From the UHGV virus genome UHGV-0181014: a stretch of DNA of 14,759 nucleotides. One strand, 5' to 3'. The DNA comes from a virus. Positions 1 through 11,907 of this stretch are shown here, one piece after another (the first letter of the stretch is position 1; the number at the start of each line of letters is the position of its first letter). The position numbers were made by a program, and so were the translations under genes. The notes beneath the pieces were generated by a model. The model was not told the origin of the DNA. It made no database searches and saw only the letters and a list, made by a program, of their open reading frames with translations.

Positions 1-5
1 ATTTT

Positions 6-54
6 TGGTCGGCACGAGAGGATTTGAACCTCCGACCCCCGACACCCCATGACG
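6..54 (-). other. Prophage attachment-site core: truncated 3' end (49 nt) of a tRNA-Pro(GGG)-like gene, not a complete tRNA
   Basis: Reverse complement of 6-54 reads CGTCATGGGGTGTCGGGGGTCGGAGGTTCAAATCCTCTCGTGCCGACCA, i.e. anticodon loop, T-arm (GGTTCAAATCC), acceptor 3' strand and CCA of enterobacterial tRNA-Pro(GGG) as I recall it. The matching 5' acceptor strand (CGGCACG) and D-arm are absent from 55-90, so only the 3' part is present, as expected for an att direct repeat at a prophage/chromosome junction. Confidence 0.7.
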
Positions 55-378
55 CCGCTTGTAAAACGCTGAGAACCGTACCATTGCTGGTGGTAGGTAC
101 TATTCATATGTATAAACAAACAGTGCTTTTTTAGCAAAATCTGCTCTATATACATCAATGACTTAGGCGATGGTTTCTCCCCATTCTATTTAAGTGGAAT
201 AACTCAAAGAATCTGTTAGTTTTTCAAGGCGTGATAAAAGTAACAGTATGAGTTTGCAGATAAAAAATTTAGGTGATTTTCGATCAATGTCATAGCTTGG
301 CACTTGGCCGAGTTTAAACTGCATGGGATAACCACACTTTAGCTGCTGTGTGATGGAGTCTCATAAAAGGTGATAATA

Positions 379-1479: not shown

Positions 1480-1639
1480 ATGGCTATACATAATCTAGGC
1501 CTGTACGGTAGCTATCTTTTGATGGGCGATCCTTACGTAATGTTAGAATTGCATGGCACAGAGCTTCCGTAAGAGGATATTTAGCTTTGTGCCATAGCAG
1601 GGGTCTGAACAAATATTAAAAATGTCTAATAAGATAGTA

Positions 1640-2818
1640 CTAACTAGCTTTAATTTCTCCATGAGGAACTACGACCCAATCGATATGATTTTGGGTATAG
1701 ATCTTTGTTGATTTCGCATCACTATGTGCCATTCGTCCTTGCGGATCGATACCCTGCTGATCGAAAAGATGCGCTGCCAGCGCTCTAATTTCATGAAAGG
1801 TTGGTCTTTCGTCCATCGATAGATGGTCGCATAAACCTAGCTTGTCACGCGTAGCTGAAAATGACCGACTCAAATAGTCCGGTGCAACTTGACTAGGGTG
1901 TGAAACCTCTTTGCTGCGTTTAATCTGCCGTTCAGGGATCCTGTGAACGACAAACGGACTGGCCACATTATCTCGGCTATCGTCTATTATCCGTTTCAAC
2001 TCTTCCCCAATCGGGATTGCAACGTGAGATGCCTCTTTTTTTTGCACTTTCTGCCTGTGGATGTAGAGAGTCCCATAAATACCGTTTTCTGGTTGCGCTA
2101 ACCATACGCACCCGCAGATACCGTCTTTTGGCTCTCTTATGGAGTAACGGATCCGTGAGACCTCCAATCGTGCGTGTGTTGTCTGCAATGCCAAATCCAT
2201 AGCGGTTCGTAACCATGGTTCGGCTGCGCGCCTGATGGCTTTAAAGTTATCAAGTGAAAGGCGCTGGCGCTTCTTCTCTTCTGTCCTACGCATTTTTTTA
2301 CGGGTTGCCGGGTTATCGAACATTAGTGATTCATCGACCGCATAGGAAAATAATTTTTTAAGAAAGCTGACTTTCCTGTTTTGTACGTTTGCTGATGCTT
2401 CGGCATGGTAGTGGTTTATATAGGCGTTCACATGCTCCAGCTCAATATCGCAAGCTGGTATGTTGATGAAGAATTCTTTTACCCTCAGAGCATCGTTGTT
2501 CCAATCGTCGAGTGTATTCTGTGAAGGGCGCTCATTCTCAATCGCCCGCTCCATAATATGATCTACGTGTTCAGCAAATGGTTTTGCTTCCCCAGTTACA
2601 CCGCCAGATTCACGGACAAGTATTTCTACTGAAGGTACATTTTCAGGTCTCATTCTTAGGTTGTATTCACGGGCTATAGCGATCGCTACAGCCCTGTCTT
2701 TACCAATATTCTTTTTTTTCCCAGTTATGAGCGTAAATTTATAAACGCCGCGATCTTTATCGAATATTAGATATTCGGGTAGATGGCGGTATTCTCTTTT
2801 TCTTGGCCTGGCTGCCAT
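1640..2818 (-). CDS. int: Lambda-family tyrosine integrase
   Basis: 392-aa ORF. N-terminus MAARPRKREYRHLPEYLIF...GKDRAVAIAIAREYN parallels lambda Int arm-binding N-terminus (MGRRRSHERRDLPPNLYIR...GRDRRIAITEA). C-terminus PTFHEIRALAAHLF...HSDAKSTKIYTQ parallels lambda Int PPTFHELRSLSARLY...HKSDTMASQY with the catalytic tyrosine. Lies next to the tRNA-derived att core and is preceded by xis. Confidence 0.9.
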   Translation of the reverse strand: MAARPRKREYRHLPEYLIFDKDRGVYKFTLITGKKKNIGKDRAVAIAIAREYNLRMRPENVPSVEILVRESGGVTGEAKPFAEHVDHIMERAIENERPSQNTLDDWNNDALRVKEFFINIPACDIELEHVNAYINHYHAEASANVQNRKVSFLKKLFSYAVDESLMFDNPATRKKMRRTEEKKRQRLSLDNFKAIRRAAEPWLRTAMDLALQTTHARLEVSRIRYSIREPKDGICGCVWLAQPENGIYGTLYIHRQKVQKKEASHVAIPIGEELKRIIDDSRDNVASPFVVHRIPERQIKRSKEVSHPSQVAPDYLSRSFSATRDKLGLCDHLSMDERPTFHEIRALAAHLFDQQGIDPQGRMAHSDAKSTKIYTQNHIDWVVVPHGEIKAS

Positions 2819-2820
2819 GG

Positions 2821-3030
2821 TTAACCCTCACTGATAAGCTGGCGAACCGTATGATTAACCATTGAGTCGACCCCCCATTTTTCAGACTCGCAGACCCAAA
2901 CAGATCCGTCTACGATTTTGCCTGTGAGAAGTCCGTTTTCAACCCAACGTTTAATGGTTCGATTATCCGGGATCGAGTCTTTGGTAAATTCGCGTTTACC
3001 CCATTGACTCGCCTTCATAAGTTTTGCCAT
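2821..3030 (-). CDS. xis: Excisionase (lambda Xis-like)
   Basis: 69-aa ORF immediately upstream of int with a 2-nt gap. Motif TIKRWVENGLL...GKIVDGSVWV resembles lambda Xis (TVRRWVRE...KDGREYL). GGAGAG RBS 6 nt before the ATG. Confidence 0.75.
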   Translation of the reverse strand: MAKLMKASQWGKREFTKDSIPDNRTIKRWVENGLLTGKIVDGSVWVCESEKWGVDSMVNHTVRQLISEG

Positions 3031-3119
3031 GACAGACTCTCCATACAGCCCGGCTGCACCCGGGCTTTAATATAAAACGATTGTGCTTTTAATATATAAA
3101 GAATTGCCTAATTGTTTAA

Positions 3120-4358
3120 TTACTTTTTCATCACCTTTTCAGCAACACCAGCAATTGCCTCAAGTCCATCAAACATTGCTGGTATATTATTTTCATTGTT
3201 TTGTATTGGACTAAAAATAAGAGCATCAAAAGAGTCTAAAACTTTCTCAATAGCAATGTTATTTTTTCTTCTATATTCAACATACCCATCAATGAAAGCA
3301 CATAAGCTGAGCCTTAGATCAATCTGCATAAGTTGAGTTCTTAAAGCCTTCGCTTCTAAATATGAAAGTCTGAAAAAATAAATAATTGCCATCTCAATAG
3401 TAATAAATGGGAATAGAATGAAGATCGCTGAATAATCTTTAGGATATAAATCAGGGAAAGAAAAATGGATTATTACAGCAATCACAGGAGCAATGAATAC
3501 AGTCCCAAATAAATTTTTATAATTCATTTCAGTTGTAGAAAGCTCTTTCTCTTTTTTTTCTTTTATTATGTTAAAACCAGAGCTTAACCCAACAAAATTA
3601 TACTCTGATTTTAAATTTCTCACACGCTCCTCTAGTGCCTTAATTTCATCCCTTGATTCATCCACGTATTTTAAATTAGCATCTGCTTCTAGTTTTCCAT
3701 CTACAATAGCTTTTTTAATGTCATTATAATTATCAGATATTAATGATATGGATGCTTTAGTGTCTTTGTTAATTTTATCAATAGCCAAATCTAAGTTGCT
3801 AGAAATTTCATCGAGAAACTTCCGTTTGTTTTCGTCGAGGTCTGATATAAAGTTTCTAGCATCAGTTAGTTTGTTACTGTTTAGTAACCACTTCATAAGT
3901 GAAATAGGTAGTTTGTCTCGAATCCATGAAAATTGGTATTTACCTTCATTATCCTTGAAAGTGTTTTCTAATAATGTCAATTTGCTGTCTGTGATAAAGT
4001 TAGGCGTGATAATGGAACGAGTGCCTGTCCAATAATAGTACTCGTACAATACTCTTAACAAGGTTGACAAAAAATCAATCTTGTCTTTCTTGTAATCGTC
4101 AACTTGAAATTCCATGTGCAACAATATATTGTCTTGATTAAAACCTGTATTCTCATCTAAATGTTGTGGGTTGTTATTTATTATTGATATAAAAGTCGAC
4201 CATGCTGAGTCCAATGTAGTATAGAATAAAGATATGCTATTATCTTTCTTTTTGGCGGATTTCTTGGACATTTCTTCAAACCTAATAAGATCTCTACTAA
4301 TTATAGTATTTGTTTCCTTTATTGAATTAAGTATTTTATTATCGCTATATAGTCCCAT
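3120..4358 (-). CDS. Hypothetical AT-rich membrane-anchored protein (412 aa, two predicted C-terminal TM helices); candidate abortive-infection or superinfection-exclusion cargo gene
   Basis: Uninterrupted 412-codon ORF in a segment of roughly 30 percent GC, against ~50 percent or more in flanking phage genes. Hydrophobic stretches FGTVFIAPVIAVIIHFSF and AIFILFPFITIEMAIIYFF near the C-terminus; coiled-coil-like segment ESRDEIKALEERVRNLKSEY. AAAAAGG RBS before the ATG at 4358. No recognisable catalytic motif. Confidence 0.7.
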   Translation of the reverse strand: MGLYSDNKILNSIKETNTIISRDLIRFEEMSKKSAKKKDNSISLFYTTLDSAWSTFISIINNNPQHLDENTGFNQDNILLHMEFQVDDYKKDKIDFLSTLLRVLYEYYYWTGTRSIITPNFITDSKLTLLENTFKDNEGKYQFSWIRDKLPISLMKWLLNSNKLTDARNFISDLDENKRKFLDEISSNLDLAIDKINKDTKASISLISDNYNDIKKAIVDGKLEADANLKYVDESRDEIKALEERVRNLKSEYNFVGLSSGFNIIKEKKEKELSTTEMNYKNLFGTVFIAPVIAVIIHFSFPDLYPKDYSAIFILFPFITIEMAIIYFFRLSYLEAKALRTQLMQIDLRLSLCAFIDGYVEYRRKNNIAIEKVLDSFDALIFSPIQNNENNIPAMFDGLEAIAGVAEKVMKK

Positions 4359-4439
4359 TTCTATACCTTTTTAAATATTATTATGTTTCATTGAGTGATG
4401 AGATATTTTACGATCAATTTTCCGGTTTTGCTTCATAAA

Positions 4440-4466
4440 ATCCCCACCCTTTCTAAGGAAGGGGAT
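4440..4466 (-). terminator. Putative intrinsic terminator downstream of the 275-aa early-left gene
   Basis: On the minus strand, imperfect GC-rich hairpin (GATCCCCTTCCTTAGAAAGGGTGGGGA) followed by UUUUAU, starting 10 nt after the stop of CDS 4476-5303. It would insulate the AT-rich cargo gene from early-left transcription. Confidence 0.4.
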
Positions 4467-4475
4467 CTAAATCTC

Positions 4476-5303
4476 TTATGGTTTAAATATTCCGATGAAA
4501 GTGTCCACTGATTCACCCTCGAACTTGCTGATCAGCAAATTGCGGAATTCGTTGGCGATCTCTTCTTCCTGGGCTTCAAGTTGGACGATGCGCAGAACAA
4601 AGCAGGGTTCATCGCTGGTCAGCAGGCTGTTACGCAAACTAAAGCGGCGTTCGCCCATACCTTCATACGGCACACATTTGAACTCGAACGCCACAGGCAT
4701 TACGTCTTTGCTGCTTGCTTCAACGCTTTGCATCAGGGATTTTTTACCAGCGAAATCACCAGTTTCATGGTCCTGCTGGGTTGCTTGCTGGATAGTGATA
4801 CGACGTACAGCCTGAGCTGCCTGGGAAATCTGCATCGTATTGCCATCAGCATCAAACGCCAGCAGGTAATCGCTCCAGTCTTCCAGCCATTCAGCGATTT
4901 GCTTTTGCTTCAGACGTTGACCGTCGATCTGCAGTAGCGCACGGAACGGGGCGGTTTTCTTTAGGGTGATTGAAGCAACGTTATCGGCGTGACCGGGATT
5001 ATCCAGGGTGCCGATGTTGAACACTGAACGAGCGGTCATGTTGTCAGCATCAATGAAGCAACGGGCTGGATCGCTGGCGCTGGCGTAACCTTTAGAATAA
5101 CGTGCGAAGTCGTCAATACTGGTTGTGGTCATTGCGCCACGGAAGCGGAAACGCTCCAGAGAAAAGCGCTCAAGGCTTTCAACGCCAGTACCTTCTGGCA
5201 ATAATGCGGTCGGGCAAGCCAGGTCCTGAATATCATTCAGGTGATAACCGGAAAGAACCAGGTCTTTGACCTGCTTGAAGGTACCGCTGTCTAACTGAGA
5301 CAT
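4476..5303 (-). CDS. Conserved prophage early-left protein, possibly YfdQ-like (DUF2303 family)
   Basis: 275-aa ORF with TAAGGAA RBS. Size and N-terminus (MSQLD...) match my recollection of E. coli CPS-53 YfdQ (274 aa); family assignment is from memory, not a search. Confidence 0.7.
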   Translation of the reverse strand: MSQLDSGTFKQVKDLVLSGYHLNDIQDLACPTALLPEGTGVESLERFSLERFRFRGAMTTTSIDDFARYSKGYASASDPARCFIDADNMTARSVFNIGTLDNPGHADNVASITLKKTAPFRALLQIDGQRLKQKQIAEWLEDWSDYLLAFDADGNTMQISQAAQAVRRITIQQATQQDHETGDFAGKKSLMQSVEASSKDVMPVAFEFKCVPYEGMGERRFSLRNSLLTSDEPCFVLRIVQLEAQEEEIANEFRNLLISKFEGESVDTFIGIFKP

Positions 5304-6321: not shown

Positions 6322-6948
6322 TTAAAGCTCGTACTGAACGCCTTTGACAACGCCGATGATCAGGCAATTACCGTTAATTGAAATGTTTGGATAGCGTGGA
6401 TTTAAGGGAACTAAGAACTTTTGAGGCCCGTCGATGACAAGTTTTTTTACAGTAGCCTCGTTTGTCCCATCAAGCCTGGCTACGACTATCTTTCCATGAA
6501 GTGGCTCTGCATCTGGATCTACTATGACTGTTGCCCCTTCAGGGATTGTCGGGAGGCCATTAGGGTTTGTCATCGAATCACCTTTAACCTCCAATGCAAA
6601 GGAGCTATCCCCTATGCGGAGTGATGTCTCTATCCACTTATCTACTTCGCTGAAAACTTCTGCTGCTTTACATTCTGTAAACTGTCCAGCCTGAACCCAG
6701 GATATCACCGGAATCCTTCGCATCTTGGTTATCAGATTGCCTTCAAATTCAGTGCCATAAAGTATGTAATCAATTGATGTGTTGAAATACTTTGCAAGTT
6801 TCGCAAGTGACTCGCCTCCTGGCACATTAACGTCTTTTTCCCAATACCCAACCGCCACATCACTAACACCGCAGAACTTACCCAGTTCTTTCTGCGAGGT
6901 TTTGGTTATGCGCCTGAGAGCTTTGATGCGCTGACCGACAGTTTCCAT
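6322..6948 (-). CDS. CI-like prophage repressor (HTH_XRE N-terminal domain plus S24 LexA-like autopeptidase domain)
   Basis: 208-aa ORF. N-terminal HTH (QKELGKFCGVSDVAVGYWEKDVNVP), a probable Ala-Gly cleavage site (VQAGQF), and the S24 Ser/Lys dyad context (GDSM ... VKKL). Divergent from a Cro-like gene with operator palindromes between them. Confidence 0.85.
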   Translation of the reverse strand: METVGQRIKALRRITKTSQKELGKFCGVSDVAVGYWEKDVNVPGGESLAKLAKYFNTSIDYILYGTEFEGNLITKMRRIPVISWVQAGQFTECKAAEVFSEVDKWIETSLRIGDSSFALEVKGDSMTNPNGLPTIPEGATVIVDPDAEPLHGKIVVARLDGTNEATVKKLVIDGPQKFLVPLNPRYPNISINGNCLIIGVVKGVQYEL

Positions 6949-8192: not shown

Positions 8193-9039
8193 ATTAACCG
8201 GCTACGTATGGGATGGTTGCGCGGCGTCGGGCATGAAGTTGTCTAGTGTCGCGATCATGGCGCGCCTTGCTGATTTCAGCAGCGATGAGGGGGTGTGCTG
8301 GCCGTCTATTGAAACTATCGCTCGCCAGCTTGGCGCAGGGACGAGCACTATCAGAACGGCAATCGCTAAGCTTGAAAAAGATGGCTGGCTCACGCGTACA
8401 CAGCGCCGTAATGGTAACCGTAATGCGTCGAACGTGTACCGCCTGAATGTGGCGAAACTTCAGGCTGCCGCATTTTCTCAACTGTCAGATTCTGACGCGT
8501 CAAAACCTGACGCATCAAATTTTGACACCTCAAAAACTGACCCGTCGAAATCTGGCAAAAACGGCGGTTTTGACCCGTCAGAATCTGGCGGGGATCCGTC
8601 AGTAAAATCAAAACAAGATCCACAAGTAACTTCAAAACCCTCTTGTCCGGTTGCGGCGCAACCAGACCCTGAAGTCGTGATTACTGACCAGGCAATTTTG
8701 GTTCTGACCCATTTGAACCAGATAAGCGGATCCCGGTATCAGAAATCAAAAACATCCCTGGAGAACATCCGTGCCCGACTGCGTGAGGGATACAGCGTTG
8801 CAGACCTGCAACTTGTTATCGACCTGAAGCATGAACACTGGCACGAGAACGACGAGCAGTACCAGTACATGCGCCCGGAAACGCTGTTCGGCCCGAAGAA
8901 ATTCGAGAGCTATCTGCAAAGCGCTACCCGCTGGGAGCAGAAGGGACGGCCTAAACGCGCTGACTGGGGAGCGAAAAAGCGCGATGTGATGGCTTTTGGT
9001 CCGGTTGAAACAACGATTCCAGAGGGGTTCAGAGGATGA
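8182..9039 (+). CDS. Replication initiator (O-like): N-terminal winged-helix/HTH domain, acidic Ser/Asp linker, conserved phage C-terminal domain
   Basis: 285-aa ORF. N-terminal LSSVAIMARLADFSSDEGVCWPSIETIARQLGAGTSTIRTAIAKLEKDGWL is a typical HTH replication-protein fold signature. The C-terminal ILVLTHLNQISGSRYQ...LVIDLKHEHWHENDEQYQYMRPETLFGPKKFESYL resembles the conserved phage C-terminal domain of replication proteins. Contains tandem iterons; the true start may be 8182 or the internal ATG at 8233. Confidence 0.75.
   Translation: MSTKLTGYVWDGCAASGMKLSSVAIMARLADFSSDEGVCWPSIETIARQLGAGTSTIRTAIAKLEKDGWLTRTQRRNGNRNASNVYRLNVAKLQAAAFSQLSDSDASKPDASNFDTSKTDPSKSGKNGGFDPSESGGDPSVKSKQDPQVTSKPSCPVAAQPDPEVVITDQAILVLTHLNQISGSRYQKSKTSLENIRARLREGYSVADLQLVIDLKHEHWHENDEQYQYMRPETLFGPKKFESYLQSATRWEQKGRPKRADWGAKKRDVMAFGPVETTIPEGFRG
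8478..8640. repeat. Origin-like iteron array inside the replication gene, followed by an A-rich tract
   Basis: Tandem 15-bp units: TGACGCGTCAAAACC (8493-8507), TGACGCATCAAATTT (8508-8522), TGACACCTCAAAAAC (8523-8537), TGACCCGTCGAAATC (8538-8552), TGACCCGTCAGAATC (8571-8585), plus degenerate copies at 8478-8492 and 8586-8600. TGACGCGTCA is itself palindromic. The array is followed by an A-rich stretch (8601-8640), analogous to ori-lambda within gene O. Confidence 0.6.
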
Positions 9040-9917
9040 CGTTAAACAAATATTGCCAGGCGCTGGCGGCACTGCGCAGCAAGCCAGCCCACGAACTGAA
9101 AGAGGTTGGCGATCAGTGGCGGACACCGGATCTGCTTTTTTGGGGTATCAACGCGCTATTTGGTCCATTAGTTCTGGACTTGTTTGCTGACGACGACAAC
9201 GCGAAGTGCCCGGCATGGTACACCGCCGAAGATAACGCGCTGACACAGAACTGGTCTGAACGTCTGGATGAACTGGGCGGCGCGGCTTTTGCCAATCCTC
9301 CATATAGCCGCTCCCAGTATCACGACAAGCAGGCGATCACGGGTATGACACACATCATGAATCACACCATGGACATGCGTGAAAGAGGTGGTCGCTATAT
9401 TTACCTGGTGAAGTCTGCCACAAGTGAAACATGGTGGCCGGAAGATGCCGATCACATCATGTTTATTCGTGGTCGTATTGGGTTCGATCTGCCTGTGTGG
9501 TTTGTACCTGCTGACGAAAAACAGAAACCCACCAGCGCGTTTTTTGCCGGTGCCATAGCTGTATTCGATAAGTCGTGGCGGGGTGAGCAGTTCAGCTATA
9601 TCAACCGCACAGAACTGGAGGAAAAAGGGCGGGCATTTATGGCTTTGGCTCAATTCGCCGTTGGTAAAGAGCAAACAATTGCAATGCAGGCAGCCAGGGA
9701 ACCAGCAGCAACACCGGAAACTGAGTCACGAATCTGGCCTCTCGAGGTTGGTCTGGTGTTTAACCAGGTGGAAGGCGTTGATGTATTGAGCGAGGCCCAG
9801 CAGAACAAACTGAAAGCCAACATCAATCAACTCTGGCTGGAACGAACGGCCACCAGCGAAATTATCACAATTGCGCGTGGTCTTGTTGGCAGCATGCAGG
9901 GGGCAACCCATGCGTGA
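9036..9917 (+). CDS. Phage-type DNA N6-adenine methyltransferase (Dam-like, orphan)
   Basis: 293-aa ORF with the catalytic NPPY motif (FANPPYS) and the N-terminal QWRTPDLLF...LVLDLFADDDNAKCPAWYT signature characteristic of phage N6-adenine methyltransferases. ATGA start/stop overlap with the replication gene. Confidence 0.85.
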   Translation: MTLNKYCQALAALRSKPAHELKEVGDQWRTPDLLFWGINALFGPLVLDLFADDDNAKCPAWYTAEDNALTQNWSERLDELGGAAFANPPYSRSQYHDKQAITGMTHIMNHTMDMRERGGRYIYLVKSATSETWWPEDADHIMFIRGRIGFDLPVWFVPADEKQKPTSAFFAGAIAVFDKSWRGEQFSYINRTELEEKGRAFMALAQFAVGKEQTIAMQAAREPAATPETESRIWPLEVGLVFNQVEGVDVLSEAQQNKLKANINQLWLERTATSEIITIARGLVGSMQGATHA

Positions 9918-11907
9918 GATTATCGTTGATAACTTTGCTGGTGGCGGTGGTGCATCAACGGGTATTGAACTGGCGATCGGACGCAGCGTGGATATTGCGA
10001 TCAACCACGACGAAAACGCCATTGCGATGCACAAGACGAACCACCCTGACACACTGCATTACTGTGAATCCGTATTTGACGTGGATCCGGTAGCCGCCAC
10101 CGGCGGCAATCCTGTTGGCCTGGCATGGTTTAGCCCGGACTGCCGACACTTCTCAAAGGCCAAAGGCGCAAAGCCTGTCAAAAAAGAGATACGCGGTCTG
10201 GCCTGGATTGTTCTGCGTTGGGCACTGGCTAAGCGACCGCGCGTGATGATGCTGGAGAACGTGGAAGAGTTCAAAACGTGGGGACCGTTAATTGACATCC
10301 CGCCTAAACCTGATTTGCCGGAAGCCCTTATGGCGGATTTTATTGGCCCGGTTTACCCTGGAAATAGTCGCCCAGACCCTGCCCGCACTGGAGAAACATT
10401 CAATGCATTTGTCGGCATGCTGTCCACTGGTATTCCTGCTGACCACCCGGCACTGTCAGAGGTTTGTGAGTTTCTGTCTATTGAAAGAGGTAGCGAGCAG
10501 GCGCAACAGCTGGTGGATGGGCTTGGATATGATGTTGATTATCGCGAACTGCGCGCGTGTGATTACGGAGCACCGACGATCCGCAAACGTTTCTTCATGG
10601 TTATGCGCTGCGATGGTTTCCCTATTCAGTGGCCTGCTGTTACCCATGGGGATCCTAAGTCTCTGGAGGTGCAGAGCGGCAGGCTGATGCCATGGCGTAC
10701 CGCTGCGGAATGTATCGACTGGAATGTTCCGGCCCTGTCCATCTTCGACCGCAAAAAACCATTGGCTGAAAATACGCTCAAACGCATCGCTCGTGGTATC
10801 CAGCGGTTTGTGATCGAGAGCGCGTCGCCGTTCATCGTTAAGTGCAACCACACGACGACCAAAGGGAAATACGACTGTTTCCGTGGTCAGGCGCTGGGCG
10901 AGCCTTTGCAGACCATTACGAAAACCCATGGCTACGCGATTGCCGTCCCACACCTGACAAAGTTCCGTACTGGCGCAACCGGGCAGCCCGTTACCGAACC
11001 CGTCCCGACGGTAACCGCTGGCACATCAAAACGTCCAGGTGGGAACGGGCATGCACTCGGGATTGTTGAGGCTGCACTGACGCCATTCCTGGCGGGTAAC
11101 GGTGGTAGTGAATACCAGGCGAAACCGCGCCCGCTGGATAAACCTGCTCATACCATTCTGAAGCAATCCCGCGCCTGTCTTGTTGCGCCAGTGATAGCCC
11201 GCCAGTTTGGGGCCAGCGTCGGCCACCGGGCAGACGAACCGAGCGCAACCATCACCGCTGGTGGTGGCGGTAAATCTCAACTGGTAACGCCTACGCTGAT
11301 CCAGATGGGTTATGGCGAACGACCTGGACAAGAACCGCGTGTGCTGCGGCTGGATAACCCGCTGGGGACCGTTACTGCAGGTGGAAATAAATTCGCGACG
11401 GTGACCGCGTTCCTGGCTAAACACTACGGCGGTAACTATACGGGACCGGGTGTCAGTATGGATGAACCCGCGCACTCAGTGACCACTGTCGACCATCATG
11501 CAGTAGTTGCCTCTCATCTGGTGAAACTGCGTGGAACATGCCGCGACGGGCAACGCCTTGATGTGCCAATGCCAACAATCACTGCTGGTGGCCAACACGT
11601 GGGTGAGGTACGCACATTTCTCGAGACGTATTGCGGGGAAAGTGACGATGAATGGCTGGTAACGATCGATGGGGTTAAATACCAGATCGTTGATATCGGA
11701 ATGCGCATGTTGCAGCCGCATGAACTCTACAAAGCGCAGGGCTTCCCGGATGGTTACGTTATTGATCAGGACTACCGTGGAAATCGCTATGCAAAAGATA
11801 AGCAGGTAGCCCGCTGCGGTAATGCGGTACCACCACCATTCGCCAGGGCGCTGGTGGAGGCAAATCTTCCGGAACTGTGTGCAGTGCAACAGCAGGAGGT
11901 GGCATGA
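9910..11907 (+). CDS. DNA cytosine-5 methyltransferase (large, 665 aa) with an expanded, internally repeated variable region
   Basis: Motif I FAGGGG (DNFAGGGGAS), catalytic Cys context SPDCRHFS, motif VI LENV, motif VIII IRKRFFMV, motif X GNAVPPP near the C-terminus. ATG at 9910 preceded by CAGGGGG and overlapping the Dam-like stop by 8 nt. The ~300-aa region between motifs VIII and X contains about seven repeats of a P-x-T-[IV]-T-A-G-G-like module. Confidence 0.85.
   Translation: MREIIVDNFAGGGGASTGIELAIGRSVDIAINHDENAIAMHKTNHPDTLHYCESVFDVDPVAATGGNPVGLAWFSPDCRHFSKAKGAKPVKKEIRGLAWIVLRWALAKRPRVMMLENVEEFKTWGPLIDIPPKPDLPEALMADFIGPVYPGNSRPDPARTGETFNAFVGMLSTGIPADHPALSEVCEFLSIERGSEQAQQLVDGLGYDVDYRELRACDYGAPTIRKRFFMVMRCDGFPIQWPAVTHGDPKSLEVQSGRLMPWRTAAECIDWNVPALSIFDRKKPLAENTLKRIARGIQRFVIESASPFIVKCNHTTTKGKYDCFRGQALGEPLQTITKTHGYAIAVPHLTKFRTGATGQPVTEPVPTVTAGTSKRPGGNGHALGIVEAALTPFLAGNGGSEYQAKPRPLDKPAHTILKQSRACLVAPVIARQFGASVGHRADEPSATITAGGGGKSQLVTPTLIQMGYGERPGQEPRVLRLDNPLGTVTAGGNKFATVTAFLAKHYGGNYTGPGVSMDEPAHSVTTVDHHAVVASHLVKLRGTCRDGQRLDVPMPTITAGGQHVGEVRTFLETYCGESDDEWLVTIDGVKYQIVDIGMRMLQPHELYKAQGFPDGYVIDQDYRGNRYAKDKQVARCGNAVPPPFARALVEANLPELCAVQQQEVA

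Follow-up and report, generated by a model that had tools for sequence, protein, structure and literature searches.

Why does a Citrobacter-type prophage carry, between its xis gene and the early-left gene yfdQ, a long AT-rich gene that is foreign to it, and what could the encoded membrane protein do there? The question is raised by the virus genome UHGV-0181014, from which a stretch of 14,759 nucleotides, read on one strand, was analyzed here (the window). The gene lies on the minus strand at 3120..4358, where the open reading frame (ORF) listing of the window gives an ATG start and 412 codons followed by a stop. It is best read as a moron, that is, a self-contained accessory gene of a temperate phage. 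From its genomic company and its pattern of conservation we infer an anti-phage activity, with sensor and effector roles for the two halves of the protein and permeabilization of the membrane as its outcome. An anti-phage role of some kind is probable; that the gene encodes a lysogen-protective single-protein effector with a membrane-abortive mechanism at the inner membrane is a narrower proposal, which we favor tentatively.

The composition of the gene sets it apart from its surroundings. Its GC content is 30.7%, against 45% for int, 46% for xis, 51% for yfdQ, 53% for the phrog_204 gene, and 53% for the remaining window. At this composition about 7.8% of random triplets would be stops, which by simple arithmetic puts the chance of an open frame of 412 codons at about 3e-15. 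The coding sequence is further supported by a full-length profile match and by a ratio of nonsynonymous to synonymous substitution rates (dN/dS) well below 1 in its C-terminal half.

The exact xis protein of this prophage is very widespread, and eight homologous loci carrying it (L007-L014; homologous loci are numbered with an L throughout) were compared with the window by blastn. They are 83-99% identical to it, L007 and L008 matching best at 93-99%. Homology runs to position 3073 and resumes at 4476, which is the stop codon of yfdQ. Between these points the relatives carry about 2.9 kb with six to nine small early-left genes, including one for an Rv2179c-like exonuclease, and the window has a 1,402-bp AT-rich segment in their place. 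As homology breaks at 3073 and 4476, the foreign cassette can be delimited to 3074..4475 (minus strand), a span in agreement with the GC profile and comprising the gene and its 5' and 3' untranslated flanks. The original prediction had placed the segment at 3047-4475; its limit at 4475 holds, and 3047 proves to be the far end of a hairpin that belongs to the backbone. Its proposal of separate acquisition is borne out, as the gene is missing from relatives that share int/xis and yfdQ with the window and the GC content is deviant. Presence or absence among collinear relatives combined with deviant composition is the criterion applied here for a moron, and the combination is found both in this prophage and in P2-like phages of Aeromonas, where the slot between gpS and gpV is empty in phage LPM4 and holds the family gene in a close Aeromonas prophage. 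From its presence and absence among close relatives it follows that the gene is dispensable for the phage.

The window protein matches phrog_9373 (PHROGs v4) with an E value of 1.7e-101 and 341 bits, aligning residues 1-412 with model positions 1-387 of 388. By this alignment it is a full-length member of that family, which is unannotated, so that membership is silent on function. The earlier remark that the protein could not be placed in any known family therefore needs to be divided: it can be placed, and the family in which it is placed has no known function. An exhaustive profile search recovered 850 clusters at 50% identity with E<=0.001, of which 598 have E<=1e-30, and nearly all are 350-430 amino acids long. 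Named members come from Citrobacter, Cronobacter, Kosakonia, Enterobacter, Kluyvera, Pectobacterium, Dickeya, Serratia, Yersinia, Paramixta, and Psychrobacter, as well as from Klebsiella phage-plasmids and from Aeromonas and Pseudoalteromonas prophages, and all members are annotated as hypothetical. Candidate relatives found in domain and structure databases were rejected. Pfam matches among 30 members (DUF2207_C in two; DUF6161, MPS2, and others in one each) are noise from transmembrane (TM) or coiled-coil segments, and sequence searches of the PDB with full-length and C-terminal module profiles yielded nothing beyond coiled coils and the COX2 TM hairpin, all with E>0.01.

The distribution of the family supports its reading as mobile cargo. 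In all homologous loci examined (11 plus 54 from IMG/VR) the GC content of the gene falls 8-28 points short of that of its flanks, whatever the host. It stands as a lone gene in the examined loci of several element types, in accord with the view of it as a single-gene unit, and six contexts recur. The first, as in the window, is the order YfdQ, gene, xis, int, in which the xis/int modules and attachment sites are of at least three unrelated kinds. The second is the nin region of Rac-like or lambdoid prophages of Enterobacter, Serratia, and Pectobacterium. In the P2-like gpS-gpV slot, the gene runs on the strand opposite to the tail genes in Yersinia phages and is co-oriented with them in the Aeromonas prophage L074. 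In SSU5-like Klebsiella phage-plasmids of about 110 kb it adjoins the primase gene, on the strand opposite to the replication genes; this context accounts for 225 PLSDB plasmids. The fifth context is found in Psychrobacter, where a small islet that also holds a Phd/ParE pair separates nrdA from nrdB. Any functional connection with YfdQ was considered and rejected, as the homologues in other genera are not beside DUF2303.

The sixth context places the gene in an immunity operon. In the Pseudoalteromonas prophages L072, L073, and L077, cro is transcribed away from cI, the family gene follows cI on the same strand after a gap of 25-31 nt, and a further gap of 4-5 nt leads to a gene for a 346-amino-acid PF16872 protein (putAbiC), whose Pfam name is "putative phage abortive infection protein." The three-gene strings occupy 5344-7567 in L072, 5335-7566 in L073, and 5326-7555 in L077. 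A gap of 25-31 nt after cI leaves no room for a separate promoter, and the gene should therefore be made in those lysogens; the arrangement implies that it is co-transcribed with the repressor. It is conceivable that the family protein and the PF16872 membrane protein work together in these prophages; the two genes co-occur in only 3 of the 54 viral loci.

A second line of circumstantial evidence comes from the other side of int. The segment at about 196-1628 is a second cargo slot, since window positions 1-195 and 1629-3073 are contiguous in the relative L012. Between int and the host flank it carries a plus-strand ORF at 370-1479 (369 amino acids; phrog_37794), which PADLOC identifies as HEC-08 over its full length (E 9e-167); its N-terminal domain is DUF3644/HEPN (E 4.5e-71), and there is a weak Zn-ribbon match. 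HEC-08 is a validated single-gene phage defense that depends on the HEPN histidine (bioRxiv 10.1101/2024.01.29.577857). In the relatives L008, L009, L010, and L013, the slot between int and att holds a type I cyclic oligonucleotide-based antiphage signaling system (CBASS), a Peptidase_M78 and HTH pair, or other small cassettes, and in some relatives it is empty. The CBASS, at 7534-8974 of L010, consists of a cyclase (PDLC00786, E 6e-144) and a 2TM/SLATT_4 effector (E 2e-84). With cargo on both sides of int-xis, both sites are exchangeable slots, one of which demonstrably carries defense genes. Some relatives also have a gene for an LRR-NEL (SspH-like) effector, slightly further out than the int-att slot.

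The protein itself has an architecture that could serve a membrane effector. Hydropathy identifies two hydrophobic segments of 19 residues each, one at about 283-301 and the other at about 311-329, with a loop of 9 residues between them, about 280 residues before them, and about 82 after. These values agree with the original prediction of two C-terminal TM helices on an AT-rich minus-strand ORF, preceded by a region of about 280 residues with a coiled-coil-like stretch and followed by a tail of about 80. Lysine plus arginine counts across the family are 4.6 ahead of TM1, 0.8 within the loop, and 2.7 beyond TM2, a distribution from which an N-in/C-in topology follows. Hydropathy and these positive-inside counts place the TM hairpin at 3372..3512 (minus strand, as are all coordinates of the coding sequence), with TM1 at 3456-3512, the periplasmic loop (residues 302-310) at 3429-3455, and TM2 at 3372-3428. 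AlphaFold (AF2; alignment of 28 sequences, mean predicted local distance difference test score 77) gives an all-helical prediction with a compact N-terminal domain at residues 1-160, a helix at 162-300, and a TM2 helix that reaches residue 365; confidence is low for the final 27 residues. In this model, the helix at 162-300 would be a coiled-coil stalk that continues into TM1.

The conserved part of the family is the C-terminal half, about 175 residues. In the alignments it contains these elements: the pre-TM motif SEYNFVGLSxGF..K..KxxEL (residues 246-282; 3513..3623), two TM segments of free sequence, a YFFR that ends TM2, a QxxQIDLRLSLCxFI helix, FExLIFSPI, and IPxxFDG. Within the pre-TM motif, N254, F255, L258, and F262 are invariant or nearly so. 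The cytoplasmic post-TM tail (residues 330-412; 3123..3371) is distinguished by its identity, its dN/dS, and its invariant residues Q342, Q345, C353, F355, F377, F382, and P393, and the C-terminal helix is basic and amphipathic (hydrophobic moment of the last helix, 0.47). The periplasmic loop varies across the family in both length and sequence. Upstream of the conserved half lie the stalk (residues 161-245; 3624..3878), for which the evidence is a predicted helix and PDB matches to coiled coils only, and the fast-evolving all-alpha cytoplasmic domain (residues 1-160; 3879..4358), a putative sensor or specificity domain.

Selection follows the same division. Compared with the 71%-identical Citrobacter amalonaticus allele (L030), the tail (331-412) has a dN/dS of 0.014 at a dS of 0.9. 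Compared with the 93%-identical allele L026, the N-terminal domain has a dN/dS of 0.49, while the pre-TM motif and the tail have a dN/dS of 0, with dN = 0 and no amino acid change at a dS of about 0.2. Identity to protein P0017 is 58% in the N-terminal domain, 60% in the stalk, and 99% in the tail. The dN/dS pattern is that of a real, expressed, and constrained protein, in which a near-frozen membrane-proximal module is joined to a fast-changing cytoplasmic head, in a mosaic that resembles those of immune proteins. Free swapping of the N-terminal domain was considered and rejected: BLAST gives two large and about eight small N-terminal domain classes, which mostly reflect divergence and not shuffling.

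When these results are placed together, a mechanism can be proposed. The C-terminal hairpin would anchor the protein in the inner membrane with its 280-residue N-terminal part and its 82-residue tail both in the cytoplasm. The fast-evolving helical domain could recognize a cue from an infecting phage, and the long helical stalk would couple this cue to the invariant juxtamembrane module formed by the pre-TM motif, the hairpin, and the post-TM tail. The module might then oligomerize or rearrange, leading to a membrane leak or early lysis and to an aborted infection, as with lambda RexB or lactococcal AbiZ. The defense reading draws on the behavior of the gene as a moron, its arrangement in the cI operon beside an Abi-type neighbor, the selection mosaic, the company of HEC-08, and the observation that TM proteins in known defense systems are generally suicide effectors (PMC9122126). 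An abortive membrane mechanism is preferred over a block at entry because conservation is confined to cytoplasmic, juxtamembrane parts, with only a short and variable loop facing the periplasm, a pattern that favors sensing inside the cell. Support for the abortive-infection or superinfection-exclusion role suggested by the original prediction is thus circumstantial, consisting of the cI/PF16872 placement, the use of moron slots such as that of P2 orf30, and the presence of HEC-08 across int.

Several observations weigh against an anti-phage function. The window protein has zero matches in Pfam, NCBIfam, and PADLOC, the last of these being a check that had been proposed at the outset, and 121 family members searched against PADLOC gave only sporadic single matches. 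Comparisons with Pfam, PHROG, PADLOC, and profile hidden Markov models (HMMs) reveal no homology to the known defense proteins AbiZ, SLATT, PF16872, or Rex. A fold search with the predicted structure gave no assignable fold, returning generic helices at high root mean square deviation (rmsd), and in the literature we found no described equivalent and no experimental data on any family member. Among 127 immediate neighbors (within two genes) at 33 viral loci, PADLOC detects three AbiP-like proteins and two methyltransferases with no further enrichment, the neighbors being mostly integrases, repressors, and baseplate or tail genes. In Psychrobacter, the gene is at the same chromosomal position in the two different genomes examined, and such a fixed position could be compatible with a cellular housekeeping role at the membrane. 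Finally, in the window a terminator of the early-left operon precedes the gene, and a sigma-70-like promoter scan of the cassette, together with inspection of 4359-4434, gave no site between this hairpin and the ATG. The promoter of its own that the gene had been expected to have was thus not found, and its expression in this lysogen is presumptive.

One alternative is that the protein is not anti-phage at all and is instead a membrane-anchored coiled-coil protein that serves the element or alters the host, for instance in lysis timing, membrane remodeling, stress handling, or tethering of a partner. The stable position between nrdA and nrdB and the scarcity of defense genes among the neighbors would both fit such a role, as would the co-orientation of the gene with early operons in lambdoid contexts. 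Weak, non-specific fold matches to Vipp1/ESCRT-III, IncA, and IpaB, which are membrane-remodeling or membrane-inserting helical proteins, point the same way, but they belong to the generic, high-rmsd helices already described. A service to the element is also difficult to reconcile with presence and absence in close relatives, by which the gene is dispensable for the phage, and with slots that differ by phage type and offer no fixed functional module partner. Moreover, placement on the opposite strand within tail and replication modules, like placement in the cI operon, is typical of morons expressed in the lysogen. We therefore regard a function unrelated to phage defense as the less likely case, one which nevertheless deserves to be kept in mind.

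A defense without killing is somewhat harder to sustain. Here, the conserved module would bind an inner-membrane host component or the DNA entry machinery of the phage and block entry or an early step, as in superinfection exclusion. Exclusion genes of the sieB, sim, and gp15 types are likewise prophage cargo beside int/xis or cI, and the inner-membrane location indicated by hydropathy and charge counts is as expected for such a protein. The extreme juxtamembrane conservation would fit the binding of an invariant host partner, and the gene is tolerated in many genomes without an adjacent antitoxin. However, a periplasmic loop of only about 9 unconserved residues leaves little exposed to an incoming phage, most of the protein is cytoplasmic, and its N-terminal domain diverges fast. 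Known superinfection exclusion proteins are small, and none is similar to the window protein. Non-abortive exclusion consequently seems unlikely.

It is highly improbable that the gene is a selfish one, acting through toxicity or addiction, or that it is a silenced remnant in decay and without current function: retention in degraded prophage remnants (L025, L029; L003-5) and an AT-rich composition of the kind typically silenced by H-NS in Enterobacteria would suit it, but strong purifying selection with saturated synonymous sites, about 850 clusters that are nearly all full length, and the lack of a conserved partner antitoxin speak against it.

The untranslated parts of the cassette bear on how the gene might be expressed. 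Between the yfdQ stop and the gene, inside the foreign cassette, folding predicts a terminator-like hairpin (4435..4467, minus strand), as had been anticipated. Its stem (4439-4467) has 12 pairs with one mismatch and a folding free energy of -16.3 kcal/mol and is followed by UUUUAU; the z score is -2.7, and 1 of 200 shuffles folds as well. A simple terminator scan missed this hairpin because of the mismatch. A hairpin at this position is kept in structure in the homologous loci L026 and L030, the latter having a different sequence with a perfect GC hairpin and TTTTT at the equivalent place. The 5' leader (4359..4434, minus strand) contains an AAGG element resembling a Shine-Dalgarno sequence at 4366-4369 and a CATAAT hexamer resembling a -10 element, which also occurs upstream of the L030 homologue; a convincing -35 element is absent. 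A scan of the cassette against Rfam found nothing.

The hairpin downstream of the gene belongs to the backbone and not to the cargo. It is GC rich (AGCCCGG-GUGCAG-CCGGGCU; 3047..3066, minus strand) and marks the right junction just upstream of the xis ribosome-binding site. There is no U-run on the transcribed strand, and TTTAATAT follows on the plus strand. The same hairpin precedes three unrelated xis/int modules, including those of L026 and L030, and is also present in relatives without the cargo gene. Possible roles are RNA processing or attenuation, either of which would control how xis-int are expressed from the left operon, or termination of transcription on the opposite strand.

The surrounding genes are those of a temperate phage. 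Downstream of the cargo on the minus strand are a small xis-like gene (2821..3030; 69 amino acids), assigned by its position directly upstream of int and by the widespread occurrence of the exact protein beside the same int, and the tyrosine integrase gene (1640..2818; Pfam Arm-DNA-bind_1, SAM-like, and Phage_integrase; phrog_1). Directly upstream is yfdQ (4476..5303, minus strand), an early-left gene for a DUF2303 protein (PF10065, E 8e-66; phrog_210), and the phrog_204 gene lies between yfdQ and the cI-type repressor gene (6322-6948, minus strand). Beyond the repressor, on the plus strand, follow cII, an O-like replication gene, and a gene for a Dam-like N6-adenine methylase (9036-9917). The methylase gene is overlapped by a plus-strand ORF of 678 amino acids (9871-11907) with strong matches to C5-cytosine methyltransferases (PADLOC MTase_II, DrmMII, and DruM; E down to 1e-30). 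From these two ORFs, it follows that the prophage carries two DNA methylases in its early-right region.

Two of the slots occupied elsewhere by the family merit description in their own right. The gpS-gpV slot of P2-like phages is variable: it holds orf30 in P2 (L032 1364-2149) and "YjcF" in vB_EcoM-613R3 (L033 1263-2099) and is empty in many P2-like phages (e.g., L090 5912-5991). It is distinct from the cos-proximal hotspot reported by Rousset et al. in 2022. In Psychrobacter, the family gene, the Phd/ParE pair, and an ORF of 117-122 amino acids are wedged between nrdA and nrdB (L006 8001-10191; L022 8001-10242). The L022 islet is flanked by long palindromes resembling repetitive extragenic palindromic elements, of which L006 has only a partial copy downstream.

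If the defense reading is true, the family would represent a widespread one-gene membrane effector missed by current detectors and present in lambdoid prophages, P2-like phages, and more than 200 Klebsiella phage-plasmids. The split between a conserved module and a fast-evolving N-terminal domain offers an experimental handle on specificity and effector function. In addition, the family marks reusable cargo slots in which unannotated defense genes may be sought, namely, those between yfdQ and xis, between int and att, between gpS and gpV of P2, and downstream of cI. Should the function not be defense, this would still be a large conserved family of phage-borne membrane proteins without known role.

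Among known systems, AbiZ of the Lactococcus plasmid pTR2030 offers a close functional parallel to the proposed mechanism. Reportedly, according to work by Durmaz and Klaenhammer from 2007, it has two predicted TM helices. It is a single-gene abortive system that acts at the membrane, causing premature lysis together with the phage holin, and it has no recognizable domain or PDB fold match (PMC13064643). The two proteins differ in host phylum and share no sequence relation detectable by profile comparison. Homology was rejected, as the PADLOC model PDLC02354 has no match to the window protein (E<=1) and matches 1 of 121 family members with an E value of 6.7e-4. A class II holin was likewise rejected as an identity for the window protein: such holins are two-TM proteins of fewer than 150 residues encoded in lysis cassettes, and the window protein has 412 residues and is encoded beside xis/int, far from any lysis genes.

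The RexA/RexB pair of lambda is similarly prophage encoded and has an inner-membrane effector, which is thought to depolarize the cell on infection. Rex, however, consists of two proteins, with four TM segments in RexB. The position of rexAB directly downstream of cI on the same strand is matched by the family gene only in L072, L073, and L077. In the window, by contrast, some 2 kb that include yfdQ and the phrog_204 gene separate the gene from cI, and it lies near xis/int; a search for similarity to RexA/RexB gave no Pfam, PHROG, or PADLOC match for the window protein. P2 orf30, which is annotated as nonessential, occupies the same gpS-gpV slot as the family gene in Yersinia phages and, as it does there, runs on the strand opposite to the tail genes, but the sequences of orf30 and YjcF are unrelated to the family (family HMM E of about 0.3 against each).

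Two further groups resemble the family in build. PF16872 putAbiC proteins (the AbiC/AbiP group) are encoded by single AT-rich genes and are membrane anchored with a cytoplasmic helical domain; unlike the window protein, they have their TM helices at the N terminus and not the C terminus, and there is no Pfam profile match. The SLATT/2TM effectors of the CBASS type, which are believed to permeabilize the membrane when activated, also combine a TM hairpin with conserved cytoplasmic helices, and 1 of 121 family members matches the PADLOC "2TM" model (E 1.6e-4). However, no SLATT Pfam match was found in 30 members, the family HMM gives an E value of 0.3 against the SLATT_4 protein of L010, and the window protein carries its own N-terminal region of 280 residues. 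An adjacent cyclase or other enzyme generating a nucleotide signal was found in none of the examined family loci. In summary, a prophage-borne one-gene membrane effector is a familiar kind of protein, and the family is an uncharacterized one, missed by Pfam, NCBIfam, and PADLOC v2, whose architecture is unlike that of the known examples, combining a helical head that evolves fast and a long stalk with a TM hairpin in the C-terminal part and a frozen tail.

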